64,000 nt of DNA, from NCBI RefSeq assembly GCF_016908315.1, contig NZ_JAFBDQ010000005.1, positions 1-64,000 on the forward strand, written 5' to 3'. The stretch is from Halanaerobacter jeridensis. GTDB taxonomy: Bacteria; Bacillota; Halanaerobiia; Halobacteroidales; Halobacteroidaceae. A program made the position numbers and the translations under genes. A model generated the notes under the pieces. The model had not been told where the DNA came from. It did not search any database and saw only the letters and a list, made by a program, of their open reading frames with translations. This document shows, piece by piece, positions 22,910-55,179 of the stretch (position 1 is its first letter; every line of letters begins with the position of its first letter).

Positions 22910-22910
22910 C

Positions 22911-24950: not shown

Positions 24951-25163
24951 TAAATTTTCCTCCTCATAATAATATAGCTTTTATTTTTTAAGTTGATCCA
25001 ATTTATTTAAGGTTTAAATTTGCTTTAATTATTAAAACATAATTTTGCATATTTTTATATTTTATCCATTTAACATTAAAAAAATAATTAAATTAAATCA
25101 ACTTATTAACAGATATTCAAACTCTAGTTTTATTAAGAATCACCTTAACTCTTGTCCTAGAAT

Positions 25164-29741: not shown

Positions 29742-30100
29742 ACTTGAAGGGCAAGCCCGTTCAGGTTTCTTCATTCATTGAAACGAGCCTAATCTAAACC
29801 TACCGAAATGGTAAGACAAATCAGGTCTTACAGTTTCTAGACCAGCCAAAAGACTGGTTGAGGCAACTTACAATGCCTCCAGAAGCTTGAATTCCCGTCA
29901 GCCCGACGGTATGTATTATATTTTAACCCTTTTCTAATTTTATAGAGCAGCTTGGTTGTCGCTTACTCTTTATCGTAGGGTTTCATTTTTTTGACTTATA
30001 TTTAGTATATCTTATTTTAGAAATAATATTCAATTATTTCTAAAATGTTGTCATTTAACCCAAAGGCAAGCCCATTAGGGTTTTCTGACAACTAATGCAA
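29742..30100 (-). mobile_element. miniature, transposase-less IS200/IS605-family derivative (LE and RE only)
   Basis: 29742-29925 is about 95% identical to the RE/omega-RNA region at 44821-45004. LE hairpin cccaaaggcaagcccattaggg at 30058-30085 is homologous to the LE at 46822-46865. Only about 130 bp of AT-rich DNA lies between them. Confidence 0.6.
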
Positions 30101-30906: not shown

Positions 30907-33900
30907 TTAAGCATAACAAATTAGTTTATCCCTTTCTTTACGATTGAATTTAGAATTAGCTCCAGCTATTTCATCAATCCTATTAAGCGGTAATTTAATT
31001 CCATAATCACCGTTCCGAAACTTCTTAATCATTATCTTCCACTGCTGATTCGAACCATATTTAATTACTAAATCATACTTGTCGTCATAACAATTTTGGC
31101 TATACTCACAATATAAAGTGGCCGTTTTATATTTCTTGACTTTAACTTCATAAAAAGTCTTTATTCCATAAGTATTACCATCTGAATTAGCTATTCTTTT
31201 CAGCTTAGGTAACTGCTTAAAATTAAGTTCAGCTAAATTATGCAGTTGTCCAAATAATTTTAGTAGGATCTTGCCGCTGCCGTCTGATTCCATAACGACG
31301 CCGTTAAAACTACTTGTTCCTTCATCTTCTCGTTTGTAAGTTGGAGTTGATTCTCCGTTATAAAATATATATTGGTCTGGTGACTGACCTCGGTTATCTT
31401 GAAACTTGAATTTAGCATGGTTCAGACCGTAGTCTCCATTTTCAAAACCATTAATTAATAAGGCATTGTTATAGTCACCAAAATTAATTACTAAATTGCC
31501 CAGCTCTTTTAGATAAGTAAAAGTGATCTTATCACCATTTAAACAGACATTTTTTTGCGTATCCTTTGCAACTTCAGTCTTACTTAATAAACTAGCTGCA
31601 TCCCTATAGTCCTGCTTTCCAAACTTCAGCAGTATCTTTCCACTGCCGTTACTTTCCTCTTCTACAGTATTATTATGCTGCCAAAAACCGCTGCTGCCTG
31701 CAGTAAATTTATATTCACAGTTACTTCTATCCAGTTGGACTACCAAATTCCGACTGCCGTAGAGGACTGTGGCATAATTAACTACTTCATCTTCAAGATC
31801 GTATCTTCTCCTACTACCGTATAACACATCTTCCGGCACGATAAATTCTAAACCAAAGTCACCATATTGATAGTTATCTATTATGACTTTACCGCCGTAC
31901 TTAGAAAAGTACTGTTTGTTATTGCCAAAACTTGCCCCATAACTATAATTAACTTCTACAGTAGACTCTTCAGGAATATAAGCATAATAAAAGCCGAACT
32001 TATCCGTGAATTCATACTTTAATTTATTCTCTATAAGTTCTACTTCATTTTTAAATTCTAAGTCTTGACCTAATAACTTCTGCTCGCCATTCGGTAGAGC
32101 AATTTTCAATCCATCACCACTAATTTTAGAGTTTTCCTGTTGGCGGTGGGCATAAATCTCATAATACTGCAGTTCTCTGATTCCATCATCAACTATCTCC
32201 GCCTCTAAACTACCTTCTACTCTATGTACACGCGGGAGATAGATGCCATAATCTCCATTCACAAACTCATCTATTCTTGTCCTATTTAACTTTTCTGTCG
32301 TAAATTCAGTCACACCATCTTTAGTTGCGCTTGGCCCGTAATAAGCAATCAGTACGTTTTCTTCTGGTTGACTAAAATTAGGCTGTAAGTGATATTCTAC
32401 TTTAAAATCTTGCTCTGCAAATACTTCTTCATATATTTCAGTGCCATAATACTTATCTTCATCTTCTTTTAGATTATTTAAATACTCCTCTTGAATCTCA
32501 ATTTTCTTTCCTAACTGTACTTCATTAATTATGATATCAGTCTGGGGATCACTGTCTTGATTATAAGTATCTATTTGGCCCATGCCCATCACAAACTCAA
32601 ACGGATCTCTTTGAGACTTACTATTCTCTTCTAGTTTACTGCTGCCAAATAAATTATGCCTATTTGGTGGAGCCGTAATGTTCATTTTTATCTGTTGGGA
32701 AGAATTAGTAATTGGAGTGCTGTGGTAGATTGTTTCTTCCTCCTGCGTTACCCCTGCTGTCCCTAAGAATAACTGCTTGATGTTTCCAGATGATGACCAG
32801 CGCCATAATTTTTTCCTGTCTTGTTCATCTATTTTCTTTAGTTGCGCTAAAATAGCAGTATCTAAGCTATACTCACTATTATTTTCATCAATTACTATTG
32901 TATATTTACATTCATTATAAATAGTTATTAATATTTTTAGCAAAGAAGACTCCTCTATTGTTATCCATTCTTCATTTAAATCCTGGTTAATATTATTTTT
33001 AGTAACTTCATCTAACTTCCGACCTTGCTGTTTAACACTATTAAATAAAGTTGCCTTAGATAATTTAAATAAATTATCTTGAAAAGTTTCTTCAGTCTTC
33101 TTTCTACTAGCTGATTTATATTTTAAATATAACTCTTCTAATTCTTTTAAATCATTACCATCATCAGTTATTTCTAAAATTATATATTTTATTATTGAAC
33201 GCAAATAATCATAACTCAAACTATCTGTTAACTCTCCGATTTCTGCTGTCCCGCCTTTATAATTTTCTGGTTCTCCTATGTTACCTTTCTTTTCTAATAA
33301 TATATAAGGGTAAAATATATTAACACCATGCTGCTTAGCTAATTCTAATTCTTCTCCTCCTATTTCACCTGCCCCATCTTTAAGAGAACCTTCTTCTATT
33401 AAATCCGAATATTTTATTTCGCTATTATCTTTAAATTCTTTATCTACTAAATAGCAGTTACCTACATGCTTAAAAATTGTTCCCGTAATATCATAAGAAT
33501 TAGCATAATTTTGGAGATTTGACTTATCCAATTTTTTATATTTTTCAGCAAAACGTAATTTTCTATTTGCAAGTTCAAATGCTATCTCTTCTAATTCCTC
33601 AGCCTCTTCAATCGGCATAATTAAAGATAAACCAGATTCTTTTATCAAACTATCCTCTATTAATGCTTGTTTATAATCTTTCTGCAGTGCTAATAACTGC
33701 TCAGTAAATTGATCAGTATCACTAATATCTTCAAATTGTTGATAACCCTCACTAAGCAACTCATCTTTTAAGTTGTCAATCTTACCTTGGAGTAAACTTT
33801 TTTTATTTAAATCATTATTCAACTCCATCTGATAAGTAAATTGATTATAATCTCCTGCTTCCATTCTCTCTTCAATTGCTTTGATTTCTTGCTTGAACTT

Positions 33901-35025
33901 TTTTACTTTATCTGCTGCTTCATCAATCATATCTAATCTATGTTTTACTAATTCTCTAATAAATTTAATCCTATCTATTTCCGGAATTCCTGCCTCATTC
34001 TTTTTTACAAATTTAGAATTTATACTAGTTCCTTGAATAATATCTGACTTTTGAATTTCCTGATAGACCCTCTTATCAAGTTCATCTCTTAAGTCTCTTT
34101 CCCCTATTAAAACTTTATTAACTAAAAAGAGCAAAGCATCCTTATAGCCTAAAAACTCATTACCATAGAAATTCTTAAAATGTTTAATTCCAATTCCATT
34201 CCACGTCTTACAATAAACATGATGACCATTCCCTTGAGCCATAACTGCTGCATACTGAGCTAATCCTCCAGCTAAGGAATGTCCAGTGAAAGTGAAAGAG
34301 TAATTCTTATATTCCGAATGATCTTTTAAAATAAGTTTATAAAAATTTTCTGCCTTATCAAATTGCTCACTAGGAATACCAGCAGCAATCAAAGAATTAG
34401 TCATTGTATGATCTCTAGTTTCATTTGTCCCCCGATAAGCAATGATTATTTCTTTATCACCTTCATTTACAAAAGCTGCTGCATAAAATCCATCGCCTGC
34501 ACCTAAATCTCCTTCCAAGAACTTATCTATTTTACTATAAACTAAATCTTCTAATTGATTGACCAACGCCCAATTAGTCAAATTAAAAGAAATTGCCGCT
34601 TTATTTAATTTTGCTAGCACAGGTAACAGAGGTACTTGTTTTATAACTAATGATAATACATCCGGGTCAGTTCCTGCATCGATCATAGGACCTGCTTGAC
34701 CCATTACAAAATTCATAATTACAGATTTTATTTTATAAAATAAATTATTTGGCTCTTCTTTTCTTTCTAAATTATTTTCTCCATCTTTCATTAAAAATTT
34801 CCAATTACTTAATTGATCATAGTTAGTATAATTAACTTCCAATCTATTCTTTCTATATTTGGGATCATCTTTAAATCTATTTTCCGCTGAATTAAAAAAT
34901 ATTTCTTCTATAGTAGAATTTTCATCTCCCCCATCCGCTTTTTTACCATTATAAAAATCTTCATAAACCATATCACTAAAAATCAAACTTAAATAATCAT
35001 TTGCTTTTGGCTTTTTTCCACTCAT
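30907..35025 (-). CDS. giant class-3 lipase (alpha/beta hydrolase) domain protein with C-terminal NGDYG repeat modules; candidate toxin/effector
   Basis: 1372 aa. Lipase_3 nucleophile elbow FTGHSLAGGLAQY preceded by AYRGTNET. Repeated modules NGDYGIYLP, NGDYGIKLP, GDYGLNHAKF and GDFGLEFIV. No signal peptide. Confidence 0.6.
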   Translation of the reverse strand: MSGKKPKANDYLSLIFSDMVYEDFYNGKKADGGDENSTIEEIFFNSAENRFKDDPKYRKNRLEVNYTNYDQLSNWKFLMKDGENNLERKEEPNNLFYKIKSVIMNFVMGQAGPMIDAGTDPDVLSLVIKQVPLLPVLAKLNKAAISFNLTNWALVNQLEDLVYSKIDKFLEGDLGAGDGFYAAAFVNEGDKEIIIAYRGTNETRDHTMTNSLIAAGIPSEQFDKAENFYKLILKDHSEYKNYSFTFTGHSLAGGLAQYAAVMAQGNGHHVYCKTWNGIGIKHFKNFYGNEFLGYKDALLFLVNKVLIGERDLRDELDKRVYQEIQKSDIIQGTSINSKFVKKNEAGIPEIDRIKFIRELVKHRLDMIDEAADKVKKFKQEIKAIEERMEAGDYNQFTYQMELNNDLNKKSLLQGKIDNLKDELLSEGYQQFEDISDTDQFTEQLLALQKDYKQALIEDSLIKESGLSLIMPIEEAEELEEIAFELANRKLRFAEKYKKLDKSNLQNYANSYDITGTIFKHVGNCYLVDKEFKDNSEIKYSDLIEEGSLKDGAGEIGGEELELAKQHGVNIFYPYILLEKKGNIGEPENYKGGTAEIGELTDSLSYDYLRSIIKYIILEITDDGNDLKELEELYLKYKSASRKKTEETFQDNLFKLSKATLFNSVKQQGRKLDEVTKNNINQDLNEEWITIEESSLLKILITIYNECKYTIVIDENNSEYSLDTAILAQLKKIDEQDRKKLWRWSSSGNIKQLFLGTAGVTQEEETIYHSTPITNSSQQIKMNITAPPNRHNLFGSSKLEENSKSQRDPFEFVMGMGQIDTYNQDSDPQTDIIINEVQLGKKIEIQEEYLNNLKEDEDKYYGTEIYEEVFAEQDFKVEYHLQPNFSQPEENVLIAYYGPSATKDGVTEFTTEKLNRTRIDEFVNGDYGIYLPRVHRVEGSLEAEIVDDGIRELQYYEIYAHRQQENSKISGDGLKIALPNGEQKLLGQDLEFKNEVELIENKLKYEFTDKFGFYYAYIPEESTVEVNYSYGASFGNNKQYFSKYGGKVIIDNYQYGDFGLEFIVPEDVLYGSRRRYDLEDEVVNYATVLYGSRNLVVQLDRSNCEYKFTAGSSGFWQHNNTVEEESNGSGKILLKFGKQDYRDAASLLSKTEVAKDTQKNVCLNGDKITFTYLKELGNLVINFGDYNNALLINGFENGDYGLNHAKFKFQDNRGQSPDQYIFYNGESTPTYKREDEGTSSFNGVVMESDGSGKILLKLFGQLHNLAELNFKQLPKLKRIANSDGNTYGIKTFYEVKVKKYKTATLYCEYSQNCYDDKYDLVIKYGSNQQWKIMIKKFRNGDYGIKLPLNRIDEIAGANSKFNRKERDKLICYA

Positions 35026-35178
35026 TGATCTCCTCCTCTGTAATTAAATAATTATTTCTATAACTATTTTTTATCTCTTCTATTTCTTTTTTATATCCCT
35101 CCCAACCAGTTTTTGAAATGCAATCCTCTTGAATATCACTAACAGAATTGATTTTTTTATAATCTTCACTTCTAATTT

Positions 35179-40918: not shown

Positions 40919-40950
40919 GGGATAAGTCTTTACGGCTTATCCCTTTTTTT
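40919..40950. terminator. bidirectional Rho-independent terminator
   Basis: gggataagtctttacggcttatccc followed by T7. Confidence 0.75.
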
Positions 40951-41989
40951 AACAAAGACGCGGTAATAATTGCTTTTGCAATGGCCTTAAAATTCTCGTC
41001 CCTCCTAAATTAGTTGTCAAGCAGACTCTTGATTTATCTCCTGTAACTTCTCCAATTACTGCAGTGCCTGTTCCTATAGGGCTATCTTTCATAGCATTAA
41101 CTACTGCTTCCGCTTCTTCTGCAGCAGCAACACATAACACCCGCCCTTCACTTGCTAAATAAAGTGGATCGATTCCTAAGATTCCTCCTAAGCCTTGGAC
41201 CTCTTTTTTTATCGGTAGTATTTCTTCTTCTAAATTAATCGTAACCTGCTTTTGCTGAGCTATTTCATGTAGTGCAGTAGCTAATCCACCTCGTGTTGGA
41301 TCAGTTAAAAATTTAATTCCACCACTAGAGCTTAAAATTTGAGCAGTTAAATTATTTAATAAAGCACAGTCACTCGTTAATGCACTACTCACTTCAAATT
41401 CTTCTCGGCTAGCTAAAATAGCTGCTCCATGATCACCTATAGAACCACTAATTATTATTTTATCCCCTGTTTCTATTTTAGCATCTTGTAAATTGATATC
41501 CGGGCCAACTACTCCTAATCCAGTAGTATTAATATAAATCCCTCCTCCTTTACCCTGCGGCACTACCTTAGTATCTCCTGCTGCTATCTTAACCCCTGCC
41601 TTCCGTGCAGTTTCAGCTACTGACTTAATAATACGTTTTAATTTATCTATCTCCAACCCTTCTTCCAAAATCAATCCCAAAGTTAAATATAACGGGTGCG
41701 CTCCATTCACAGCCAAATCATTAACAGTACCGCAGACAGCTAATTTACCAATATCCCCCCCAGGAAAAAAGATGGGATCAACGACAAAAGAATCTGTAGT
41801 AGTTACTAATTCCCCTTCTACTTCAGGCAAATAAGCAGCATCATCCTGCTGCAATAAGATATCATTACCGCAATAATAATAAATAATATCTTTAATTAAC
41901 TCCTGCATTAACTCCCCACCATTACCGTGGGCCAAAGTTATCGTTTTCACTTTGCTCACTCCTTTCCTAAATTCTATATAAATCTTCAC
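40949..41989 (-). CDS. hypE: hydrogenase maturation factor HypE
   Basis: AIR-synthase-related fold. N-terminal TITLAHGNGGE. C-terminal RILRPLQKQLLPRLC-type tail. Confidence 0.8.
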   Translation of the reverse strand: MKIYIEFRKGVSKVKTITLAHGNGGELMQELIKDIIYYYCGNDILLQQDDAAYLPEVEGELVTTTDSFVVDPIFFPGGDIGKLAVCGTVNDLAVNGAHPLYLTLGLILEEGLEIDKLKRIIKSVAETARKAGVKIAAGDTKVVPQGKGGGIYINTTGLGVVGPDINLQDAKIETGDKIIISGSIGDHGAAILASREEFEVSSALTSDCALLNNLTAQILSSSGGIKFLTDPTRGGLATALHEIAQQKQVTINLEEEILPIKKEVQGLGGILGIDPLYLASEGRVLCVAAAEEAEAVVNAMKDSPIGTGTAVIGEVTGDKSRVCLTTNLGGTRILRPLQKQLLPRLC

Positions 41990-42185
41990 TTTTTAGTGAA
42001 GATTTATAGTAATTAGTAACAAGTAAAGAGTGATGAGTAGAAAATCAAAAACAAAGTCAAAACCAAGTTCAAAAACTATAATCTTAGTGGTTGTGTCTTT
42101 TTTAAGATTTTGATTTTATGGTTTTGACTCATTACTGATTACTCTTTACTATAAAGTTTCATTTTCACTGAAACTTTATATAGGT
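41985..42185. repeat. hairpin-bounded AT-rich repeat element in the hypD-hypE intergenic region
   Basis: Hairpins tcttcacttttt agtgaaga (about 41985-42008) and aaagtttcattttcactgaaacttt (about 42155-42183) flank a sequence sharing CTCATTACT/TTGACTTT/CTCTTTACT motifs with 25960-26400. Confidence 0.5.
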
Positions 42186-43263
42186 ACGCCGCGCAACTCC
42201 CCTCCTGCGAGACCATACATGGGCCCAGAGGATGTGATGGAGTACATTTTGTCCCAAATAACTCACAATCAGTTGGCTTTTTTATTCCCATCAACACCTC
42301 TCCACAACTACACCCCGACTGTTTTGCTACTTTACCAGTTGCAGAAGCAAAATCAAATTTATTCTCAGCAGCAAATTCTTGATATTCCGGCCTTAATTCT
42401 AACCCTGAATTAGTTATCTTTCCCAAACCACGCCACCGACTTACAGTAGAGGTGAAAACTTGCTCCATAATCTTTAAAGCCTTTGGATTTCCTTTCTGTT
42501 CGACAACTCTAGGATAGGCATTGACTACTTTAGCTTCCTGTCTTACAATCATCTCCATAATTTGCTCTAAAGCAAAGAGAATATCACCTACTTCAAAACC
42601 AGCTACAACAGCAGGTAAATCATATTCTTTAGCCAAAAACTGAAAAGGTTCTACTCCAATGATACTAGCTACATGCCCCGGACACAAAAAGCCATCTATA
42701 TCTAAGTACTGATTTAAAACTAACTCTTCCATCACCGGCGGCATTGTTTTGAGAGCTTGTAACAAAGAATAGTTAGTCAGATTCTTTTTTTGCGCGTCTA
42801 AAATACTTAACGCAATCACAGGCGCAGTAGTTTCAAAACCAACAGCTAAAAATACAACTTCTTGTTCAGGATTATTTTCAGCAATCTTGACAGCATCTAG
42901 CGGTGAATATACTGTTTTAACATTTGGCCCCTGGGCTTGTTCTAATTCCAAAGTACTGTTACTACCCGGCACTTTTAAAAAATCAGCAAAAGTTGCTACC
43001 ATTACTCCTTCTTGCTGAGCCAAACTAATAGCAGTATCTATATAACTAAACGGCGTTACACAAATTGGGCAGCCTGGACCTGTCAATAATTCTACATTAG
43101 ACGGCAGTAGTTCCCGCAGCCCAATCTTCGAGATAGCCTGCGTATGAGTACCGCAAACTTCCATTATTTTAATCTTTCCTTTAACTACTGTGAATTCTTG
43201 CTGCAATTTTTCTAAGAGTTTACTGTTTATCTTTGCAGCCCTAAATTGTTCTAAGTAATTCAT
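42139..43263 (-). CDS. hypD: hydrogenase maturation factor HypD
   Basis: 374 aa with CGxH, GPGCPVC and CPVC motifs characteristic of HypD. Confidence 0.85.
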   Translation of the reverse strand: MNYLEQFRAAKINSKLLEKLQQEFTVVKGKIKIMEVCGTHTQAISKIGLRELLPSNVELLTGPGCPICVTPFSYIDTAISLAQQEGVMVATFADFLKVPGSNSTLELEQAQGPNVKTVYSPLDAVKIAENNPEQEVVFLAVGFETTAPVIALSILDAQKKNLTNYSLLQALKTMPPVMEELVLNQYLDIDGFLCPGHVASIIGVEPFQFLAKEYDLPAVVAGFEVGDILFALEQIMEMIVRQEAKVVNAYPRVVEQKGNPKALKIMEQVFTSTVSRWRGLGKITNSGLELRPEYQEFAAENKFDFASATGKVAKQSGCSCGEVLMGIKKPTDCELFGTKCTPSHPLGPCMVSQEGSCAAYLYKVSVKMKLYSKE

Positions 43264-43493
43264 CTTTCTTCCCCCGCATCTTGGGCCAAATCTCTAAAAG
43301 CAGCTAAAGTTTCCTGGGCTGCAGATTGATTTAACTTTTGAATCGCACATCCCGAATGAAGCAGCACATAGTCTCCTACCTCTACTTCCGAAATCAAAGT
43401 AATATTGACTGTCTTTCTAACTCCTTTTACTGCTCCTACAGCCTCTGTATCATTAACAATTTCTATAACTTTAACCGGCACAGCAATACACAT
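43260..43493 (-). CDS. hypC: hydrogenase maturation factor HypC
   Basis: 77 aa starting with MC (MCIAVPVKV...), the HypC/HupF hallmark. Confidence 0.8.
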   Translation of the reverse strand: MCIAVPVKVIEIVNDTEAVGAVKGVRKTVNITLISEVEVGDYVLLHSGCAIQKLNQSAAQETLAAFRDLAQDAGEER

Positions 43494-44233
43494 TACAAAT
43501 GACCCCTCTCTTGATAATTAGCTACTGCTAATTGTCCTACTGCTAAGCCCTCATCAGTACAAGGAATCTTATGAGGTAGATGAACTTTAAATCCCCCAGC
43601 TGTTAACTTGCGATAAACCTCAATCAATAAGATCTGATTCTGCCATACCCCTCCACTTAATACTACATGATCTAATTTGAATTGTAGTCGCAATATCTCA
43701 CATAACCTAACACTAAAATTAATCACTGTATTATGAAATTTACGAGCAATCATACCTGCATCTACTCCCGCTCTTAAATCAGCAGCAATTTCTTTTATCA
43801 AAGTGGTAATCAAAATCTGATACTGACCTGCTCTCTTGCTGATTTGATAATTATAACTATCATTATTATTAACAGTTTGAGCTGCAGTTTCTAACTTAAG
43901 AGCAGCCTGCCCTTGATAACTCCTTTTTAAACACAATCCTAATAGAGCTGCTACTGCCGCAAATAATCGTCCAAGACTAGAAGTAAGAGGACAATTAATA
44001 TCTTGTTCTAACATTTGCTCTACTGCAGCTAATTTATCAGGCTTTATTTGAGACATATTTTGAGTAAAGATTTCAGTTACTTCTATTCCCGCCTGGTGGA
44101 GATAACTAACTGCCATCCGCCATGGTTCCTTAACTGCTTGATCTCCGCCGGGTTGAGCTACATACTGCAAATGACCTACACGCATAAAATCACTATAATC
44201 ACAAATAAAAAACTCCCCCCCACAAGTGACCAT
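43493..44233 (-). pseudogene. hypF: hypF fragment (Kae1-like C-terminal domain)
   Basis: Overlaps the preceding hypF fragment in another frame. The frameshift lies in an aaaaaactcccccc homopolymer region at about 44205-44225. Confidence 0.7.
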
Positions 44234-44818
44234 CAGTTCCTAAACCTACTCCATCAAAAGCAATTCCAATCACCGGTTGTTGGAGTTGATGTTCAACCAT
44301 AGAACTGACTAAATGGGCATGATGATGCTGCACTGCTATCTTCTCACCTGGTAATTGCTGAGCATAATGAGTAGAATAATAACCCTCATGTAAATCATGA
44401 ACAATTAACTCCGGTTCTATATCATACAACTGCTCTAAATGTTCAATATTATCTTGATAACGTTGGTAAGTCTCTAAGTTACTTAGACTGCCTGTGTACT
44501 GACTTACAAAAGCAAATTCTCCTTTGCTGAGACAGAATGTATTCTTTAAATCTCCTCCACAGGCCAAAGTAGCTACCTCTGAGCTTACTTTAATCACTTG
44601 TGGTGCAAAACCACGGCCGTGTCTAATTACTCGTTCATGACCAAGGGCTACATTGGTTACTGCATCATCTACCGGCACCTCTATCTTGCGATTATGTAAT
44701 AAACAGTAGTCAGCTACTGCAGTTAATTCTTCTCCTGCTCTTTGATTAGTATATTCTAACGGTAGTCCACTTAAATTTCCACTTGTCGCTACTAATACAT
44801 CAAGTCCATGGGCCAATG
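44199..44818 (-). pseudogene. hypF: hypF fragment (YrdC-end/Kae1-like middle portion)
   Basis: ...LAHGLDVLVATSGNLSGLPLEY... The annotated N-terminus MKKPERACPSGRS is read-through from the IS right end, not hypF. Confidence 0.7.
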
Positions 44819-44820
44819 AC

Positions 44821-45050
44821 CTACCTGAAGGGCAAGCCCGTTCAGGTTTCTTCATTCATTGAAACGAGCCTAATCTGAACCTACCGTAAATGGCAAGACA
44901 AATCAGGTCTTACAGTTTCTAGACCAGCCAAAAGACTGGTTGAGGCAACTTACAACGCCTCCAGAAGCTTGATTTCCCGTCAGCCCGACGGTAAATATGT
45001 TTTTTATGAGCTTCACGAAAAGTCCGTTAGGACTTGTAGGATGTGGACTA
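44821..45050 (-). ncRNA. putative TnpB-associated omega-RNA / right-end element
   Basis: Highly conserved approximately 185-bp structured sequence immediately 3' of tnpB. It is duplicated (about 95% identity) in the tnp-less copy at 29742-29925. Confidence 0.45.
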
Positions 45051-46181
45051 ACCTGCTAACAGTTTCTTTCCTTCTTGGAGGATATTCAAACTTGCGTTAA
45101 GGTCACGATCATGTTCAGCACCACATTCACAGGTCCAGTTTCTTACAGATAGATCTTTAACATTTGGATTTTTAGTTCCACATTCGTTGCAAGTTTGAGA
45201 ACTTGCGAAAAATCTATCTACCTTTTGAATGATACAATTATACCAGTCACCTTTATATTCTAGCATATCTGTAAATTTGCCCCAAGATACATCTGTTATA
45301 TGTTTGCCAAGTTTGCTGTTTTTGACCATACCTTCAATGTTTAAGTTTTCAAGACAGATAAATTGATTTTCTTTAACTAGTCTTGTACTTAATTTATGGA
45401 GGAAATCAGTTCGTACATTTTTGATCTTTTCATGTACTTTAGCAATCTTATGTTTGAGCTTTTGCCAGTTATTAGAACCTTCTTTTTTACGAGCTAATTG
45501 TTTTTGTAATCTGGCTAGTTTATTTTCATATTTAGAAAGATGTTTAGGATTTTCTATCTTTTCGCCCTCTGATGTAATAGCAAAATCTTTGAGACCTAGA
45601 TCAATTCCTATCTGACCATCATTGGAATAATTAACTTCTACAACTTTAATTTTTTCAACATTGATAGAGATATAATACTTTCCTGTTCTTGATTTAGAGA
45701 CTGTAACATTATTTAATTTACCTCCAATATTTTCTTCACTATAATTAGAAAATTTGATCCAAGAAACTTTAGGAAGTTTGATTTTATTTCCTTTGATTTC
45801 TATACTTTCAGTTCCGCTAGATCGTTTAAAATATTCGGTACGATATGATAGTCGAGAACCTTTCTTGCTTTTGAAATTAGGGAATCCTTTATCACCGTTA
45901 AAGAAATCTTGGAAAGCTTTATCTAGATCTCTAATTGATTGCTGCAAAGCTATAGAATCAGCATTTTTAAGCCATGAAGTTTCTTCCTGATTTTTAAGTT
46001 TAGGAAGATCTTTAATATATTGAGTTTTATTTGCATAGCCATTTTGTTTAGCTTTGTCTAAAAAATAATTATATACCCATCGGCTAGACCCTATAGTTTG
46101 GTTGATTATATCTTTTTGCTTTTGATTTGGATATATCCGACATTTATATCCCCGTTCGATAGGAACAAATCGCTTAATCAT
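45048..46181 (-). CDS. tnpB: IS605-family TnpB (RuvC-like nuclease with zinc finger)
   Basis: 377 aa. C-terminal CNECGTKNPNVKDLSVRNWTCECGAEHDRDLNASLNI zinc-ribbon. RuvC-like motifs. Confidence 0.9.
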   Translation of the reverse strand: MIKRFVPIERGYKCRIYPNQKQKDIINQTIGSSRWVYNYFLDKAKQNGYANKTQYIKDLPKLKNQEETSWLKNADSIALQQSIRDLDKAFQDFFNGDKGFPNFKSKKGSRLSYRTEYFKRSSGTESIEIKGNKIKLPKVSWIKFSNYSEENIGGKLNNVTVSKSRTGKYYISINVEKIKVVEVNYSNDGQIGIDLGLKDFAITSEGEKIENPKHLSKYENKLARLQKQLARKKEGSNNWQKLKHKIAKVHEKIKNVRTDFLHKLSTRLVKENQFICLENLNIEGMVKNSKLGKHITDVSWGKFTDMLEYKGDWYNCIIQKVDRFFASSQTCNECGTKNPNVKDLSVRNWTCECGAEHDRDLNASLNILQEGKKLLAG

Positions 46182-46197
46182 AATTTGACCTCATTCC

Positions 46198-46602
46198 CTA
46201 TTTAAGGTTTTGATTTTTTATATAATTTCTAATAGTTTCAATATTAGCATTACCTACTGTATCTACAAAATATCCTTTGCTCCACAAAGAACCACAACGA
46301 TCATAAAAAATCTTTAATTTAGGATGTTCCTTGAAAAGTTTAATTGCTGATATGCTTTTAATAGTTCTTACTATATCAGTAGGAGCAACTGTGGGTCTAG
46401 CAGATACAAAAATATGAATGTGATCTGGCATTACTTCTAACTCTAATATTTTATAGTTATATCTGTTACAAATATTAATGATAATATCTTTTAAAGATAA
46501 AGCTATATCGCCATTTAAAACTTCAAATCTGAATTTAGGACACCAAACTAAATGATATTTGATGGAATATTTACAATGGTTAGTAGAATTATATTCATTC
46601 AT
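46198..46602 (-). CDS. tnpA: IS200-family TnpA (Y1 HuH transposase)
   Basis: 134 aa. HuH motif MPDHIHIFVSA. Catalytic Tyr region SKGYFV. Confidence 0.85.
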   Translation of the reverse strand: MNEYNSTNHCKYSIKYHLVWCPKFRFEVLNGDIALSLKDIIINICNRYNYKILELEVMPDHIHIFVSARPTVAPTDIVRTIKSISAIKLFKEHPKLKIFYDRCGSLWSKGYFVDTVGNANIETIRNYIKNQNLK

Positions 46603-46801
46603 TTAAATCATACTTTTCTTTGATACTTCTACGCATTAAATCTAAATAGCTTAGTGTAGTCTCTTCTTCAACTGAATAAATACTAGCTAAATTTTCTAAT
46701 TCCCGATCAAAAGGAATTGCAATATTAATTTTAGTATTATCTTTACTTGAAGACATTTTATTTGCTCCTTTAACACATATTATCCCACAATAGATTATAT
46801 A

Positions 46802-47434
46802 TTATGTGAATAGTTGTGTTCTTGACCCAAGGGCAAGCCCGTTGGGTTTTTTACACAAAAACAATAACTGTGGCCCACAATCAGGGCAGGCATTTGGCTG
46901 AGCATGAAAGCGCCTGCTAGTCGGATCTTGATATTCACTAAGGCAATCTTCACACATACTAAAATCAGACATAGTAGTTGACTCCCTGTCATATGGTATA
47001 CTCTCAATAATTGAAAAGCGTGGGCCGCAGTTCGTGCAATTAATAAACGGATATCTATATCTTCTATCATCTCCATCTAATAATTCCTCTTGGCATTGTG
47101 AACATAAAGCTGCATCTGGAGTCACAAAGGTTAACTGTTCATTATCATCTGTACTATCTTTGATTTTAAAATGTTGATAATTCGTAGATTGCAGCTGGTT
47201 GATTATTATCTCTTCTATTTGGGCCAAGGTTGGCGGATTAGATTTAATTTGATTAATCAAATTAGTTACTCCCCGCAGCGAGCCCTGCACATCAATTTCT
47301 ACCCCCTGCTGAGTATTATTAACTTCTCCTTGTACATCATAATGCTGAGCTAAATTATAAACAAAGGGTCTAAAGCCAACTCCTTGTACTATGCCCTTTA
47401 CTATCACAAACTTACGAATTACTTGCTCATTCAT
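46802..47434 (-). pseudogene. hypF: hypF N-terminal fragment (acylphosphatase plus two zinc fingers)
   Basis: KFVIVKGIVQGVGFRPFVYNLA (acylphosphatase), CSQC...CTNCGP and CEDC...CPDCGP zinc fingers. Runs into the IS left end. About 130 aa of the YrdC-like domain is missing between this and the next fragment. Confidence 0.75.
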
Positions 47435-48080
47435 TTTGCTTAATCCTTTCTTTTAAATAACTGCAAAATTCTTTTAATCCCTGCTGATTACTACAAGAAA
47501 CAGGAAACACTCTTAACTCCGGCTGCAGAGATCTCAAATCAGATTCAACTTCGGAAAGAGAAAAATTGCTCTGCTCTAATAAATCCAACTTGTTGATGAC
47601 TACTGCATCAGATTGCTGGAATAAAGCAGGATACTTAAGCGGTTTATCATTACCTTCTGGAACGCTAAGTACAGTAATTGTCATTGCCGTACCTAGAGCA
47701 AATGAAGCAGGGCAGACTAAGTTACCTACGTTTTCAATAATTAAACAATCTAACTGCTATAAATCCAATTTTTTTAATACCTGTTGAATTGATAATGCTT
47801 CTAAATGACACGCCCCCTGCGTATTAATTTGAATTACTTGACTACCATAACCCTCTAGTCGCTCGGCATCTCTTCTCGTATATAAATCCCCTTCAATTAC
47901 TGCTAGATTAATCTCTTGACCTAATTCACTTAATAAATATTCTAATAAAGTCGTCTTACCACAGCCAGGAGAACCAACTATATCAAAAGCAAAAACATCT
48001 GCTTGCTCTAAAATGCTTTTATTTTCTTGTGCCCTTTGCTCATTTTTAGCTAATAAATTTTTCTCTACTTCTACTTTCAT
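47427..48080 (-). pseudogene. hypB: hydrogenase nickel-incorporation GTPase HypB with in-frame TAG
   Basis: G1 motif VGSPGCGKTT. ...[43 protein letters not shown]... is continuous in a single frame. TAG at + strand 47757-47759. Confidence 0.7.
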
Positions 48081-48433
48081 GCTGATTCCCCCTCAATGGT
48101 ACTTAAATATAATTCATCCCCCGATAACAATTGTTGACAAAAACTATTACAATTAGGGCAATATTTATTTCGCTTCTTCACTTTAAACTGAGTCCCACAA
48201 TTTTTACACTTAGCTTGAGCCGTGACCCACTCTATCTTCAATTCAGCCTCCTCCATTCCAGTACTAGCAGCAAAAGCAGAAAAGGCAAATCTTAATGCAC
48301 TTTCTTCTATACAAGTTAGTTGGCCTATTTTTAATTCTACACTATTAATTTTTTCTAACTGCTGCTCAACTTTAGTCGCAGTTATAATTTCAAATACCCG
48401 AGCCATAATTGACATTTCATGCATCTTAATCAC
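48077..48433 (-). CDS. hypA: hydrogenase maturation factor HypA
   Basis: MHEMS start, CKNCG...CPNC zinc site. Confidence 0.8.
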   Translation of the reverse strand: MIKMHEMSIMARVFEIITATKVEQQLEKINSVELKIGQLTCIEESALRFAFSAFAASTGMEEAELKIEWVTAQAKCKNCGTQFKVKKRNKYCPNCNSFCQQLLSGDELYLSTIEGESA

Positions 48434-48502
48434 CCTTTATTTCCTATTAACATTTCAAACAATAATTTTTTCTATTCTCCATTATTAATTTTCAATTATC
48501 AA

Positions 48503-49894
48503 TCAAAACGTAACCTTTTCTTCTATCTCTCCTTCAACATTAAGCACATGAGTAGCACAGGAAATACAAGGATCAAAAGAGCGAATAATCCGTCCTAAAA
48601 TCGTAGTTAATAAATTAGCATTAGGAATTTTAGTTCCGACTAAAGCATTTTCTACTGGTTCCCGCCGGCCCAATTTATCTTTAGGAGAAAAATTCCAAAC
48701 GGTAGGCGTTATAATTTGATAACTTGATACTTCTTCTCCTTCAATTTCTGCCTGATGCAATAGCGCTCCCCGCATCGCATCAGTAGTAGCTGTGACCTTA
48801 GTCTTAACTGGCTTTTCACTTTGACTAATTGGAGGTGGACCAGGTTCTAATTGAGCCAACCATTTCTCCATTAATTCTGCAATCTGCAGTGTTTCTCGTG
48901 AGCGGGCTACAATACGATCCATAGTTGAAGTCTTTAACGGATAGTCACCTCTGATAATTGCCCGCGCTAAAGGACCAGTTTCAAAAAAATCTCCGTCATA
49001 CTACACAGATTTAGTCCAACTATAAGCTCCTGGTTTATCTGGAGCCGGCTCTAACTGACCATCTTCTTCTTCAAACCAAGAATTAGCTACTGTTTCTTCA
49101 ATTTTATCCACATCAGGCTGGGCAAACTGCCGCCCGTTAATTACTCCCCTAGGCCAAAAATCATCTTGATTCTGTTCACCAAACTTAAATAAGCCACAAG
49201 AAATTAACCGCTTAGGAGTAACCCCAATCTTAAAATAATCATTATAAACTTGGGCCAACAATTCTGTATCTGGAATCAGTTTTTCTCTAATAAATTGCAA
49301 AATATTAGCTAATAATGCTTGAGCTCGATTAATCTTATCAGCAGTAGGAGCTACTGCTACACCACCTTGCACAAAACTATGTTGATGCGGTGCTTTCCCG
49401 CCAAATAAAGCTAATATCTCATGCGCTTCCTGCGCAACCTTGACAGCATCAAAGTAATGACCTACTAAGCGCTGATTATCTTTAGGCTTCAAACGCCCAT
49501 CAACAAGATTTTGATTTTGCCACGGAGGCCGATTAGGAAACTCAACAAAATCAGGCAAGCTAAAAAAATAAAAATGGCGGATATGATTTTGTAAGAAATC
49601 AGCAACCAGCATAATATTTCTTAAATACTGAGCCCGCTGAGATAAAGTACTACCATATAACTCATCTAATAAATAACTACCCACTGCTCCATGGGCCAAA
49701 GAACAAATCCCACATACCCGCTGCGTCAGATATACAGCATCAGTTACTTTCCGGCCCTGCATAATTTTTTCATAACCTCTAAACATCGTACCTTTAGCAT
49801 TAGCCTCTTTGATCCAACCATCATCTATAACTACCTTGACTGATAGTAATCCACTTAATCGCGTAACAGGACTAAAATTAATCGTCTGACTCAT
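48503..49894 (-). pseudogene. [NiFe]-hydrogenase large subunit with in-frame TAG
   Basis: N-terminal RVCGICSLAH (RxCGxC) and C-terminal DPCISCATH (DPCxxCxxH) motifs lie in one frame. ...YSWTKSV-TAG-YDGDFFETGPLARAII... TAG at + strand 49001-49003. Confidence 0.75.
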
Positions 49895-49978
49895 ATTCTC
49901 TAACCCCCTTCTTTAATATAATAAAGATTGAGTTTAAGTCTAAGAATTAGGCTTTATCTTCTCTTTTGTCTTGACTGT

Positions 49979-50899
49979 TTATTCATTACTGTTTTCAGAT
50001 AGCGGAGTAAAAAATGGCGTCGAACCATCGGGAAAATCGGGATTAGTACAGCCGATACAAGGAGTATTAGCTTCGACTGGCCAATTAACATTAATCCACT
50101 TCCGATAAGGGCAATCTGCTCTAGTTTTAGGCCCTACACATCCTTGACTGAACATACATTCAATCTCACCTAAATTTTCAGCAAAGTTACCATTATCAAA
50201 ATAAGAGCGACGCTGACAATGGCGGTGAATAGTATAACCATAAAATAAAGTTGGTCGATTGCGGTTATCAAGTTCTGGCCGTCCATACATTAATAAATGC
50301 GCTAAAGTTCCAACAAACCAATCAGCATTCACCGGGCAACCACTGACATTAATAACTTCCCGGTCTAATACCTCACTGACTGCTACACTTTGACTGAGAT
50401 TAGGTCGAGCTGCACTAGGGCCACCGAAACTAGCACAAGTTCCTAGTGCTACTACATATTTAGCCAAGCCACCTAACCACTTTACTGCTTCTAAAGCACT
50501 AACTTCTCCTTGGGAAGTAATGAAGACAACATTGTACTCTTCTTGTAAAGGAATTGCTCCTTCTACTACTAAAGTAAATTGACCGGCTTTTTTATTAGCA
50601 GCAGCTTTGAGATTATTAACCGCATCTTGGCCCTGGGCAGCCATAAAAGTATTACTGTATAACAAATCAATTGTTTCCTCCAAAAATCGGTCTAAATAGG
50701 GATATGTTGTATTCATGATTGAAATATTATTATCACAACTACAATTTGTTTCTAACCAAATTACAGGTAATTTTTCAGTTTGAGAATCATGATAACTACT
50801 TACTTCTGCTAAGATTTTATGAGTTAAAGAACTATGCCCTTTATTACCTTGGTAAGGAGAATAATTCTGACAAAGATTGATAAACTCATTTCGCTTCAC
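49979..50899 (-). CDS. [NiFe]-hydrogenase small subunit
   Basis: Cys clusters GCPVNADWF and CIGCTNPDFPD typical of the small subunit. No Tat signal is evident. Confidence 0.8.
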   Translation of the reverse strand: MKRNEFINLCQNYSPYQGNKGHSSLTHKILAEVSSYHDSQTEKLPVIWLETNCSCDNNISIMNTTYPYLDRFLEETIDLLYSNTFMAAQGQDAVNNLKAAANKKAGQFTLVVEGAIPLQEEYNVVFITSQGEVSALEAVKWLGGLAKYVVALGTCASFGGPSAARPNLSQSVAVSEVLDREVINVSGCPVNADWFVGTLAHLLMYGRPELDNRNRPTLFYGYTIHRHCQRRSYFDNGNFAENLGEIECMFSQGCVGPKTRADCPYRKWINVNWPVEANTPCIGCTNPDFPDGSTPFFTPLSENSNE

Positions 50900-51270
50900 A
50901 AATATACCTCCCCTTTTTATGTCTCTAATAATATTATGTTTTCAAATTATCTATTATTAAAATTATTTATACTCTATTTTAGTAACGAAAGAACATTTAT
51001 CTAATATGCTGTATTAAAAAGCTTATGGGGGGAGTCTAACTTGAAAAGTATAAAAACAATATTCAAAAATATGAAGACAAATATAATACATATAGCAATT
51101 CTACAATTAACTCTGACTGCTTAATCAATTGTTTATCACTATTAATTGATTATAGTCTTAAAAAACGAAAATTTTCCAAGCAAAAATAAAAGAGACAAAA
51201 AATATTAACTTTATTTATTAATTGACGCTAGCAATGTATAATTAATTCAACTTATTAATAAATATTAACT

Positions 51271-51747
51271 ATGGAAAAAATCAATTATAAAGTTACAATT
51301 ATAGGACTTGGTAATATCTTAATGTCAGATGATGGTTTAGGAGCAACTGTAATTAAACAATTAAAGCAAGAAACCTGGAGTAGAGAAATTTTAATTGTAG
51401 ACTGCGGTACTTGTCCCCTAGTTTATCTTGAACAATTGAGTACATCGCAGCACGTAATTGTAATTGATGCTATTAAAAAAGGTAAACCGGCTGGGACCAT
51501 TTATCACTTTAATTTAGCAAAACACAGATCAAAAAATAGACTTAAAAGAACCACTCATAATTATTCTTTACCTCAAGTTATTGCCTTAGCTCGCGAAATT
51601 AACAATTTACCTCACACAGTAATCTATTATGGCATTGAACCTGCTAATCTAAATTTAGGAACAGAACTTTCTCATCCACTAAGACAGTCTATCCCCAAAT
51701 TAATTAGACTGATTAAAAAACAAATCAATCAGTTAAGCAAAAAATAA
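51271..51747 (+). CDS. hydrogenase maturation endopeptidase (HyaD/HybD/HycI family)
   Basis: ITIIGLGNILMSDDGLGATVIKQL signature of hydrogenase maturation proteases. Confidence 0.8.
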   Translation: MEKINYKVTIIGLGNILMSDDGLGATVIKQLKQETWSREILIVDCGTCPLVYLEQLSTSQHVIVIDAIKKGKPAGTIYHFNLAKHRSKNRLKRTTHNYSLPQVIALAREINNLPHTVIYYGIEPANLNLGTELSHPLRQSIPKLIRLIKKQINQLSKK

Positions 51748-51777
51748 TCCAGGAGCAGCTCAAGGCTACTCCTGGAT
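51747..51777 (+). terminator. hairpin directly after the protease gene stop
   Basis: atccaggag...ctcctggat. Weak U-run. Confidence 0.4.
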
Positions 51778-51805
51778 TATGCTAGTTATTATGAACTTTT
51801 AAAAT

Positions 51806-51846
51806 TACAAAAAATTAAAAAAGCTCTGGGGAAATTCCCCAGAGCT
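51806..51846 (-). terminator. Rho-independent terminator of the csp gene
   Basis: agctctgggg aaatt ccccagagct followed by a T-run on the minus strand. Confidence 0.8.
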
Positions 51847-51881
51847 TTGTAAGGTCGCAATTTATGTTAGTTAGAGCTTAT

Positions 51882-52087
51882 TTACAGCTTAACAACATCT
51901 TCAGCTTGCAATCCACGATCGCCTTCTACTACTTCAAATTCTACCTCTTGATCTTCTTCTAAAGTTTTGTAACCTTCTTCTTCAATTGCAGAAAAGTGAA
52001 CGAATACGTCATCTCCTGCTTCTCTTTCGATAAATCCATAACCTTTTTTCCCGTCAAACCATTTTACATTACCTTGTTCTTTCATTA
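51882..52087 (-). CDS. cold-shock protein (CspA family)
   Basis: [22 protein letters not shown]...[12 protein letters not shown] motifs. Likely start at the Met after the ggagg RBS rather than the upstream ATG of the 85-aa ORF. Confidence 0.85.
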
Positions 52088-52228
52088 TAAAATTCCTCCT
52101 AAGTTTTTTAAAACAGTTGATAAGAAGTTTTTTTATCAACCTAAATAAATAATAGCACAGGATTAGCTATTTGTCAAAGGATTTATTCATTAATTATAAA
52201 TTATTACAACTGCTATAATAATAATTAC

Positions 52229-53416
52229 TTAATTTTCACCATCAGCCAACCATCTCTCTCCTGTTAACTTAATACCTAATGCTCCTAGAGGTGAAGTTAC
52301 TACAATCGATAAGACTGCTAATGCTAAAATTAATTCCCCCGACTCAACTCCTGCAGCTAACGGTACTGCCCCTACAGCAGCCTGTACTGTTGCTTTAGGT
52401 AGATAAGCGATCACACAAAATAATCTCTCTTTCCACTCTAAATTAGTATTAATTAATGAAATTAAAACCCCAATCGATCTAGCTAAAAGACCAACCGCAA
52501 TAATTACTAGCCCGACTAAGCCTGATTGTAAAGCCACCTCAATATTAACCTCAGCACCAATTAACACAAATAATAATAATTCAGCAAACACCCAGATTTT
52601 ATTAAACTTAGCCGCTAACCTCTGCCCTACTTCCTTATATTTTTCCATAATTACAAAACCAATTGTCATTACTCCCAATAAACTAGCAATTGATATAATT
52701 CCTTCGAGCGCTTCTTTAGATACATCCAGAAATATAGCCACACTTAAAATCAACAATACCTTTTTAGTATCACGCATATGATACTTTTTAAACAAATAAA
52801 TCAAGAATAAAGCTACCACAACTCCAATTGCTACTCCTAGGATAATTGAAATCGGAATATTTAAAAGTTTCCAAGTTAAATTAACACTCTGTCCCCCATA
52901 AAATCCTAGAAAAGTAGAAAATAGAGTAATTGCGACTATATCATCGATTGATGCTCCCGCTAAAACTAAAGTTGGAATCCCCTTAGCTGCTCCTTTACCC
53001 CGATCAATCAAATTTAACATTTGAGGAACTATTACAGCAGGAGATACAGCAGCAATAATAAAAGCTAAAATTCCTGCTTCAATTAACGAGATATCTAATA
53101 AATAATTAGCCACAAACAAAATCGTAAAACCTTCCATTAGCCCCGGAATAAAACTCATCTTAACTGCAGGAACTCCTATTTTCTTTAGCGTTTCTTTCTT
53201 TAAGCCTAGTCCGGCTCGAATTAAAATAATAATCAAGGCTATTTTTCTTAAATCCGGCGAAACCTGCAGTAATTCTTGACTCATTACATCAAAACCATAC
53301 GGACCAATTGCTACTCCCAAAATCAACATTCCTAATAACCCTGGTAAACTAACATGGTCAAAAGCCTTATTAAGTATTAGACCAAACAAAATTATAATTG
53401 CTAAACTTAACGCCAT
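52229..53416 (-). CDS. cation:proton antiporter family membrane protein
   Basis: 395 aa, about 11 TM segments. Resembles CPA-type Na+(K+)/H+ exchangers. Confidence 0.55.
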   Translation of the reverse strand: MALSLAIIILFGLILNKAFDHVSLPGLLGMLILGVAIGPYGFDVMSQELLQVSPDLRKIALIIILIRAGLGLKKETLKKIGVPAVKMSFIPGLMEGFTILFVANYLLDISLIEAGILAFIIAAVSPAVIVPQMLNLIDRGKGAAKGIPTLVLAGASIDDIVAITLFSTFLGFYGGQSVNLTWKLLNIPISIILGVAIGVVVALFLIYLFKKYHMRDTKKVLLILSVAIFLDVSKEALEGIISIASLLGVMTIGFVIMEKYKEVGQRLAAKFNKIWVFAELLLFVLIGAEVNIEVALQSGLVGLVIIAVGLLARSIGVLISLINTNLEWKERLFCVIAYLPKATVQAAVGAVPLAAGVESGELILALAVLSIVVTSPLGALGIKLTGERWLADGEN

Positions 53417-53835
53417 TTTTTATCCCACTCCCTTTTCTATATAAGTAAGACAGTTAAAGTTAAAAGAATCTTTGCTAAAGATATTTTCTTTTAAAAGAGA
53501 ATATCTCTATAAGACCATTCCTGCCCCACACTATTAAAGTAAGATTACCTTAGATGTAGATGAAATTTTTTCGCAGCGACTTTAAATCTAGTTTGCAATA
53601 AGTCTTAACGCAGAATAATAAAAAATCATTTTATCTACATCTGGAAAGCTACACTTTATATAAAAAAGACCCCTACTCGCTGAGAAGATAAAGTAATCCC
53701 CAAGCAAGTAGGAGCCATCAATTGCTATATTTAGCAATAGTTAAAGGCGAGCTCCATCGCCTACCATTTAATTTTAGCAGATTAATTATAAGATTGCAAT
53801 CAAAATTTGTAGACTAATTATTTTACTGCCTTTTT

Positions 53836-55044
53836 TCACCTTTTACATTTCCCCAACATACCATCTAACAAAGGATTAGTTCGTACCCCAGTATCTCTAG
53901 AATACGGCATGACAGATATTCTAGTTCCCGGCACAGCAAATGGATCTTCAGGAATAACTTTTGTTCCACTCCAGGTTGATTGCTCCCCAGAAAAAGTTGA
54001 TTCTTCTAAAATAATAGAATAACTCCGCCCTTCGCCAGTACCAATGCCAATTCCCACTCCAGCTACATAAGAATCAAACTGCCCATCAAATATTGATTCT
54101 GGAGCCGGCAAACCAGTAGCACCAACAGTCAGAGCATAGCTGTTTTCTGCTAATTTCTGCACTAAAACAACACCACCTCGTCGAGCAGGCACAGGTCTCA
54201 AATATTCAGGTGCAGTCAGTATCACAACACATTTTTCCGGTACGATTGCTTCTGTAGGTATACATATCTTTTCTCCCACAGAAATTTGGTTAGGATTTTC
54301 TATTTGAGGATTAGCAGCAATTAAATTATCTACCGTAATTCCATATCTTTGGGCTATTTCATATAAAGTATCTCCTGCTTGGACAGTATAAGTTTTCCCT
54401 ACACAATCAGTTGTTTGATCGGCTGAATACTGATTTTCTACTAACACAAAAGAGCCCGGCACAAAAGCAACTGAATCATAAGGCACAATTCCTACTATTT
54501 TTGTATTAGACAAATTTATTCCACCTAAAGCCAAACTCCAGGTTGGTTCTTGATTTCCCACAGCAGTCTGCTTTAATTCAGAGTAAAAAGTTCCTCCGCG
54601 TTCTCGACTAAAAAATCTAGTCATGACTGCATAGGAATCAAAATCAAGCTGAGATTCTAGCAATTCTGGTTCCGGCAGCCCAGCAGCAAAAACAGTCACA
54701 TCATAACTATCTTCTGTTAGCTGCTGTAGTAAAATCACTCCTCCAGCTCGGTTTGAAACTGAAGGATATTCAGTATTTTGAGGTCGAGTTAGTACTGTTG
54801 ACCATTTTTCACTTCCCTCAATTTCTTCAATTGGAATACAGATTACCTGACCAACAAAAATAAAATTAGGATTTTCTATCTGCGGGTTAGCAGCCAGTAA
54901 ATCATCTACTGCAACTTCATATTTCTGAGCTATCTTGTTTAAAGTATCGCCCGGCTGCACAGTATATCTAGTCCCTGGACAATCATTCATATAATTCCTG
55001 CTTATAATATAAAATCCTATGCATAATGCATAGACCACAATCAT
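53836..55044 (-). CDS. LysM-repeat protein, paralog 1 of 3
   Basis: Two LysM domains (YTVQPGDTLNKIAQKY...; YTVQAGDTLYEIAQRYGI...), each followed by an approximately 130-aa module. Confidence 0.7.
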   Translation of the reverse strand: MIVVYALCIGFYIISRNYMNDCPGTRYTVQPGDTLNKIAQKYEVAVDDLLAANPQIENPNFIFVGQVICIPIEEIEGSEKWSTVLTRPQNTEYPSVSNRAGGVILLQQLTEDSYDVTVFAAGLPEPELLESQLDFDSYAVMTRFFSRERGGTFYSELKQTAVGNQEPTWSLALGGINLSNTKIVGIVPYDSVAFVPGSFVLVENQYSADQTTDCVGKTYTVQAGDTLYEIAQRYGITVDNLIAANPQIENPNQISVGEKICIPTEAIVPEKCVVILTAPEYLRPVPARRGGVVLVQKLAENSYALTVGATGLPAPESIFDGQFDSYVAGVGIGIGTGEGRSYSIILEESTFSGEQSTWSGTKVIPEDPFAVPGTRISVMPYSRDTGVRTNPLLDGMLGKCKR

Positions 55045-55105
55045 ACAAGATTAGATTGTGTTAGCTATAATCCTATGCACAGTTTTTCTTATAAGCAGGA
55101 TTTTC
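54995..55105. promoter_or_regulatory. palindromic operator-like element upstream of LysM paralog 1
   Basis: Perfect 17-bp palindrome CTATGCATAATGCATAG (55017-55033) nested in a long imperfect inverted repeat cctgcttataa...ttataagcagg. Confidence 0.45.
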
Positions 55106-55179
55106 ACCACCTTTCTTTTTGTTTGAATTAAAATTTTTACTAAAAGTCAATTTATCTAACCTTTAATCAGGTCATAATC

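Follow-up and report, generated by a model that had tools for sequence, protein, structure and literature searches.

In-frame TAG codons in a [NiFe]-hydrogenase operon of Halanaerobacter jeridensis very probably reflect recent pseudogenization rather than a variant genetic code

The stretch of the Halanaerobacter jeridensis genome considered here (64,000 nt, positions 1 to 64,000 of contig NZ_JAFBDQ010000005.1; hereafter the window) carries on its minus strand, at ∼40.9–50.9 kb, an operon of [NiFe]-hydrogenase structural and maturation genes in the order hydS-hydL-hypA-hypB-hypF-hypC-hypD-hypE. The first-pass annotation had reported in-frame TAG codons in the large subunit gene hydL and in hypB, as well as a hypF gene disrupted by an insertion sequence (IS), and had proposed a decaying hydrogenase locus rather than recoding. 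Both TAGs are exactly where they had been reported, and they are reproduced by an independent assembly, that of Logan from the public run SRR18704483; the IS is present in hypF and belongs to the IS200/IS605 family. We consider it very likely that this [NiFe]-hydrogenase operon has undergone ordinary, recent pseudogenization, with no variant genetic code involved. The operon, its lesions and the divergent endopeptidase gene next to it are listed below (lengths in amino acids, aa; bit scores are followed by the model's cut-off where we give one).

49979..50899, minus strand: hydS, [NiFe]-hydrogenase small subunit, 306 aa, open (TIGR00391, 220 bits against 179.5; PF01058/PF14720 in the orthologue)
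48503..49894, minus strand: hydL, [NiFe]-hydrogenase large subunit, 463 codons with TAG at codon 298 (PF00374; 98% identical to the intact protein P0001)
49001..49003, minus strand: in-frame TAG of hydL, codon 298 (CAG, Gln, in 5/5 related loci)
48077..48424, minus strand: hypA, nickel metallochaperone, 115 aa, open (TIGR00100, 101 bits against 88.1)
47427..48080, minus strand: hypB, nickel-insertion GTPase, 217 codons with TAG at codon 108 (TIGR00073)
47757..47759, minus strand: in-frame TAG of hypB, codon 108 (GAA in the two nearest relatives; GAG, AAA or AAG farther out)
46860..47434, minus strand: hypF 5′ fragment, codons 1–191, acylphosphatase and zinc-finger part (tblastn/blastn against the intact hypF of L001, a metagenome contig described below)
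44821..46859, minus strand: IS200/IS605-family element inside hypF (tnpA 46198–46602, tnpB 45048–46181)
43493..44820, minus strand: hypF 3′ fragment, codons ∼317–758, with a 2-bp frameshift (comparison with hypF of L001)
43260..43493, minus strand: hypC, 77 aa, open (TIGR00074, 79.5 bits against 48)
42139..43263, minus strand: hypD, 374 aa, open (TIGR00075, 431.5 bits)
40949..41992, minus strand: hypE, open (TIGR02124, 426 bits; PF00586/PF02769)
51271..51747, plus strand: hydrogenase maturation endopeptidase (HycI/HybD family), divergent from the operon, open (TIGR00072, 124.8 bits)

Translated from its start to the natural TGA, hydL has 463 codons and a sole internal stop, the TAG, which follows SWTKSV and precedes YDGDFFETGPLAR; the 217 codons of hypB (47427–48080) are likewise interrupted by the TAG only. 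If the two parts of each gene are stitched across the TAG, the conceptual proteins can be aligned over their entire length with complete homologues, the nearest being 98% (P0001, for HydL) and 97% (P0121, for HypB) identical. Stitched HydL is a PF00374 protein with both metal-ligand motifs, the N-terminal RxCGxCxxxH (RVCGICSLAH, R59–H68) and the C-terminal DPCxxCxxH (DPCISCATH, D441–H449), and the TAG falls between the two. Stitched HypB scores 253.5 bits with TIGR00073 (cut-off 121.2; profile positions 3–215 of 217), a match obtained only when the halves are joined. The truncated hydL product, 297 aa long, has lost 166 residues along with the DPCISCATH motif; the truncated hypB product is missing the ENVGNLVCP and NKLD segments. 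A public NCBI protein, P0013, named ‘Ni,Fe-hydrogenase I large subunit [Halanaerobacter jeridensis]’, matches the 297-aa HydL piece with 100% identity.

The same genes are intact in relatives. L001, an 8,933-bp contig from an ENA metagenome that encodes P0001, has 97.3–97.9% nucleotide identity to the window (97.7% overall) and the same gene order, with all genes open: HydL of 463 aa, HypB of 217 aa and HypF of 758 aa. Four more distant loci (L082, L083, L084 and L085) are also syntenic and intact; they share the order Na+/H+ exchanger, CSD, protease, hydS, hydL, hypA, hypB, hypF, hypC, hypD, hypE. The position of the maturation endopeptidase gene is syntenic in L001, L083 and L084.

Codon 298 of hydL is CAG at each of the five related loci that were examined, so one C-to-T transition accounts for the hydL TAG. 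At codon 108 of hypB the relatives have, nearest first, GAA, GAA, GAG, AAA, AAG and AAG; the TAG differs from the codon of the nearest relative at two bases, and one step from a GAG or AAG ancestor could be enough to produce it. The earlier suggestion of simple point mutations behind the TAGs was therefore right, though not in its particulars: both had been described as AAG-to-TAG transitions at Lys- or Arg-like positions, while the nearest relatives have Gln in HydL and Glu in HypB, and an AAG-to-TAG change is a transversion anyway.

In comparison with L001, hypF has three breaks: (i) the IS insertion; (ii) a loss of 372 bp; (iii) a 2-bp frameshift. The IS segment (44821–46859; 2,039 bp) is specific to the window relative to L001. 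It shares with known IS200/IS605 elements a Y1 TnpA (NF033573, 156 bits against a cut-off of 55) and a TnpB (NF038281, 462.5 bits against 425), a hairpin close to either end (CCCAACGGGCTTGCCCTTGGG and CCTGAACGGGCTTGCCCTTCAGG, from the junction sequences), no terminal inverted repeats, and a left end at a ...GTTAT target. The difference is that 372 bp of target are missing at its right end, a loss that simple peel-and-paste insertion does not yield. These 372 bp (5808–6179 of L001, after the insertion point) are missing from the entire window and correspond to HypF residues ∼192–316, the YrdC-like domain by Pfam order. At the junctions (46860/46859 and 44821/44820) the left end of the IS adjoins ...CAGTTAT in hypF, and the deleted segment ends just past ...TTGTT/AT in the relative; the similar GTTAT-like sequence at both breakpoints hints that the deletion may have been mediated by the IS. 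The third break is a 2-bp deletion at ∼44215–44216, where GGGGGGGAGAG has become GGGGGGGAG; it throws the C-terminal domain of HypF out of frame.

A 172-bp copy of one end of the element (44821–44993) is found at 29740–29911 with 96.5% identity, and the other end is weakly matched at 30055–30084. This intergenic copy is a solo or miniature IS200/IS605 remnant and points to past activity of the element in this genome.

The window lineage has also experienced a deletion of ∼167 bp at the 3′-end of hydS and in the hydS–hydL spacer, with the last five HydS residues altered (PEKRKE to SENSNE); this deletion is not obviously inactivating. The spacer is 170–460 bp long in relatives and contains short tandem GACAGTNA-like repeats (window 49895–49990 compared with L001 2505–2772 and L084 6340–6812). 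Some 96 bp at 51025–51121, in the intergenic (promoter) region between the protease gene and hydS, have no counterpart in L001.

Altogether, at least four independent inactivating lesions are present in the operon: two TAGs, the IS insertion with the 372-bp deletion, and the 2-bp frameshift. The idea of a decaying locus is supported by this number, together with a relative of 97.7% identity in which neither site is a stop and hypF is whole. The cysteines of the C-terminal DPCxxCxxH motif of HydL bind the Ni-Fe centre, and a product ending at residue 297 lacks them; a HypB cut at residue 107 has lost half of its G3E-type GTPase domain; a HypF that has lost the YrdC-like domain and whose C-terminal domain is out of frame provides no carbamoyl-derived cyanide ligands. 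Given this established knowledge of the families, any single lesion among hydL, hypB and hypF should abolish the active enzyme.

We infer that the TAGs are read as stops, that no active enzyme is made, and that after the first essential loss the remaining genes became neutral and gathered further lesions. The lesions themselves, like the intact genes of relatives, are seen directly: a C-to-T transition converted codon 298 of hydL, Gln CAG, to TAG, which, read as a stop, removes the C-terminal 166 residues and with them the nickel-iron ligands of DPCxxCxxH; the second TAG came from a change at Glu/Lys108 of HypB and takes away half of the GTPase domain; and hypF was broken by insertion of the tnpA-tnpB element, by the adjacent loss of 372 bp (the YrdC-like domain) and by the 2-bp frameshift. 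With one essential component lost, the rest of the genes would have been neutral and further lesions could accumulate.

Ordinary bacterial pseudogenes, produced by nonsense mutations, IS insertions and frameshifts and decaying after loss of selection, show the same features: stops where close relatives have sense codons, an IS with a deletion beside it and a small frameshift within one pathway, and independent hits clustered in one functional unit. Nothing of substance separates the present case from them; it is notable only for having TAG as both nonsense codons, in a family with one conditional TAG decoder. This is very probably standard gene decay.

The substitution patterns bear on decay in both directions. 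Pairwise ratios of non-synonymous to synonymous substitution rates (dN/dS) against L001 are 0.11–0.27 for most genes (0.11 for hydS). In favor of decay, the ratio for hydL rises from 0.15 in the part before the TAG to 0.92 in the part that follows, a value that comes from only six non-synonymous and two synonymous changes; among the former is G412E, at a residue that is Gly in all close relatives. Against decay, dN/dS in hypB after the TAG is still 0.18. When changes are polarised with an outgroup, the window lineage has 26 non-synonymous and 30 synonymous changes and the L001 lineage 20 and 19, with no excess on the window side. Also against decay, both premature stops are TAG, the codon conditionally decoded as pyrrolysine in Acetohalobium arabaticum, and both TAG sites are variable among homologues, such that read-through products could be functional.

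Without an excess of non-synonymous change, the genes are best seen as having been kept by purifying selection during most of the period after the two lineages parted, with the lesions arising recently. Recent inactivation would be the sole reading that reconciles the lesions with patterns resembling purifying selection. Old pseudogenes, or a long period of relaxed selection, were also considered and were dropped, the polarised counts being without a non-synonymous excess in the window lineage.

That both stops are TAG invites another explanation, conditional read-through of UAG. With the pylTSBCD genes or an amber suppressor tRNA, full-length HydL and HypB would be made under some conditions, with pyrrolysine (Pyl) or another residue at the TAGs. 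We regard it as very improbable, though slightly less so than the other two alternatives below. Several residues are tolerated at both positions in homologues. In addition, H. jeridensis shares the family Halobacteroidaceae (by taxonomy) with A. arabaticum, in which Pyl decoding of UAG is regulated by growth conditions and is on under some of them only (PMC11467909).

The first-pass annotation had argued against pyrrolysine from the use of TAG as an ordinary stop. The use itself is clear: of the 63 stop-to-stop segments in the window that span 100 codons or more, 16 end in TAG; the PfkB-family kinase gene at 27363–28271 is complete (Pfam profile 3–297 of 302) and TAG-terminated; genes of a Mut7-C protein (both domains covered) and of DprA are complete and TAG-terminated as well, with C-termini at the same residue as in their L084 orthologues. 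As an argument it is weaker than was assumed; with conditional Pyl decoding known in A. arabaticum, frequent TAG stops are not decisive alone in this clade. Long same-frame segments of the coding strand joined by a TAG occur in the window only in hydL and hypB.

How often two nonsense mutations would both give TAG can be estimated. We listed all the stop codons that one base change could create in the intact genes of L001, under a range of transition and GC-to-AT biases; TAG makes up 30–45% of the possible nonsense mutations in hydL and 23–35% in hypB. The probability that both are TAG by chance is ∼0.07–0.16, therefore the coincidence is unremarkable.

The machinery that read-through would need was looked for in several ways. 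No pyl genes were seen in the 64-kb window, and ARAGORN predicted no tRNA gene there. Rfam gave no element near either TAG, and folding of the 120 nt 3′ of each TAG was no better than that of shuffled sequence (z = +0.48 and −0.63). Genome contigs were searched with a PylS profile built from an alignment of the M. mazei and D. hafniense proteins (checked against PDB). PylS matches were found in at least 579 species of the genome collection, a breadth that favors read-through; the best 80 matches were nearest to the Desulfitobacterium-type PylS, and H. jeridensis and the known decoder A. arabaticum were both outside these 80. In the literature we found nothing on pyrrolysine in Halanaerobacter or Halanaerobiales.

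To our knowledge, neither hydrogenase nor HypB is among the known Pyl protein families, which are methylamine methyltransferases and a few others. With the genuine Pyl genes mtmB, mtbB and mttB of A. arabaticum and other Pyl-decoding bacteria, hydL and hypB have in common a TAG inside an otherwise full-length open reading frame (ORF), an occurrence within the same family and similar truncation by annotation pipelines. They differ in three ways: HydL and HypB do not belong to the methylamine methyltransferases; orthologues do not share the TAG, the nearest relatives having CAG in hydL and GAA in hypB; and the partner gene hypF, destroyed by the IS, the 372-bp deletion and the frameshift, is irreparably broken, so that maturation would not be restored anyway. 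A suppressor inserting Gln at both sites was rejected, the hypB site being Glu/Lys rather than Gln.

A broader form of the same idea seems to us slightly less probable still. H. jeridensis might share conditional UAG decoding, by Pyl or by a suppressor, with A. arabaticum; TAGs arising at tolerant sites would then be tolerated or conditionally read, and hydL and hypB would represent an early spread of TAG into ordinary genes.

The TAGs could also be base-calling or polishing errors in a genome that truly has sense codons, which we judge very improbable. The evidence is from one strain only, and the two assemblies compared may come from the same reads. Still, a contig of the Logan assembly (L087; 8,298 bp) is 100% identical to window positions 46822–55119 over its whole length, both TAGs included; with the two assemblies sharing both TAGs, an assembly artefact is very unlikely. 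Moreover, the TAG lesions are substitutions rather than errors in homopolymer length, the hypB codon is two bases away from that of the nearest relative, and neither the IS insertion nor the 372-bp deletion is explicable by base-calling. L087 ends 38 bp into the IS element; a break inside an IS is typical of a repeat in short-read assembly and suggests several IS copies in the genome.

Equally improbable, and rejected, is a functional split large subunit, in which residues 1–297 and a re-initiated 139-aa piece (ATG at 48922) would assemble as VhuA and VhuU of methanogens do: the ATG-started ORF (48503–48922) does hold the C-terminal motif and weakly matches the VhuU model, and gene callers divide hydL of L087 into pieces of 297 and 139 aa (and hypB into 107 and 85 aa), but a restart at M325 drops 27 residues (298–324), among them the invariant Y299, G301, G307, P308 and R311, no Shine-Dalgarno-like sequence precedes the ATG, and the protein is a single polypeptide in all relatives, with no conservation of the split.

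As for the type of enzyme that recent pseudogenization has very probably removed, its best NCBIfam matches are NiFeSe models, with scores below the equivalog cut-offs (412.6 bits against 600 and 222 against 470). For the two models that define a [NiFeSe] enzyme, NF033181 or NF045518, the scores are 412.6 bits against 600 and 379.8 against 780, and Cys is present instead of selenocysteine (encoded by TGA). Judged by these matches, the enzyme is nearest to the NiFeSe-type group. Features in common with NiFeSe-type (group 1) hydrogenases are the PF00374 large subunit with RVCGICSLAH and DPCISCATH, a C-terminal extension of 14 residues, the small subunit, the endopeptidase and hypABFCDE; the differences are the scores below cut-off, Cys for selenocysteine, the degenerate twin-arginine motif of the small subunit and the inactivation of the genes here. 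The N-terminus of HydS (50860–50899, minus strand) reads KRNEFINLC, a degenerate remnant of the twin-arginine motif (RRxFxK) with no hydrophobic stretch after it, and the same is seen in all close relatives; this N-terminus suggests a cytoplasmic rather than a periplasmic enzyme.

Outside the operon, a mobile or defence island seems to occupy the left half of the window. An ATPase/TOPRIM nuclease of the OLD family (6270–8018; AAA_15 and OLD-like_TOPRIM) adjoins a UvrD-type helicase (4490–6286) on the minus strand; such a nuclease and helicase pair (4490–8018) we take to be typical of the Gabija (GajA/GajB) anti-phage system. The same half contains a fragment of an IS110-family transposase (1–534), a tyrosine integrase (12761–13804) and, like it on the minus strand, a protein of 1,627 aa in which DUF3686 and DUF7902 are recognized (18035–22918); two further large ORFs on that strand, of 689 aa (22911–24980) and 1,378 aa (30907–35043), have no Pfam match. 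Of the 172 positions in the MCPsignal profile, a 224-aa ORF at 14155–14829 (minus strand) matches only 17–60; a chemoreceptor gene may have been truncated here, which would make it another pseudogene. To the right of hydS, a fluoride riboswitch is found at 53702–53770 on the minus strand (RF01734, 48.7 bits against a gathering score of 34), upstream of a gene of the Na+/H+-exchanger family (52229–53416).

For the organism, recent pseudogenization of the operon means that the annotation of the H. jeridensis strain sequenced should show no functional [NiFe] hydrogenase, with hydL, hypB and hypF as pseudogenes, and that metabolic reconstructions should not credit H. jeridensis with this [NiFe] enzyme. 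A call of pyrrolysine should not be made from in-frame TAGs before orthologues are checked. A new biological question would arise only if the genome decodes UAG; otherwise the locus is a clean small case of several independent lesions gathered in one operon whose close relatives are intact.

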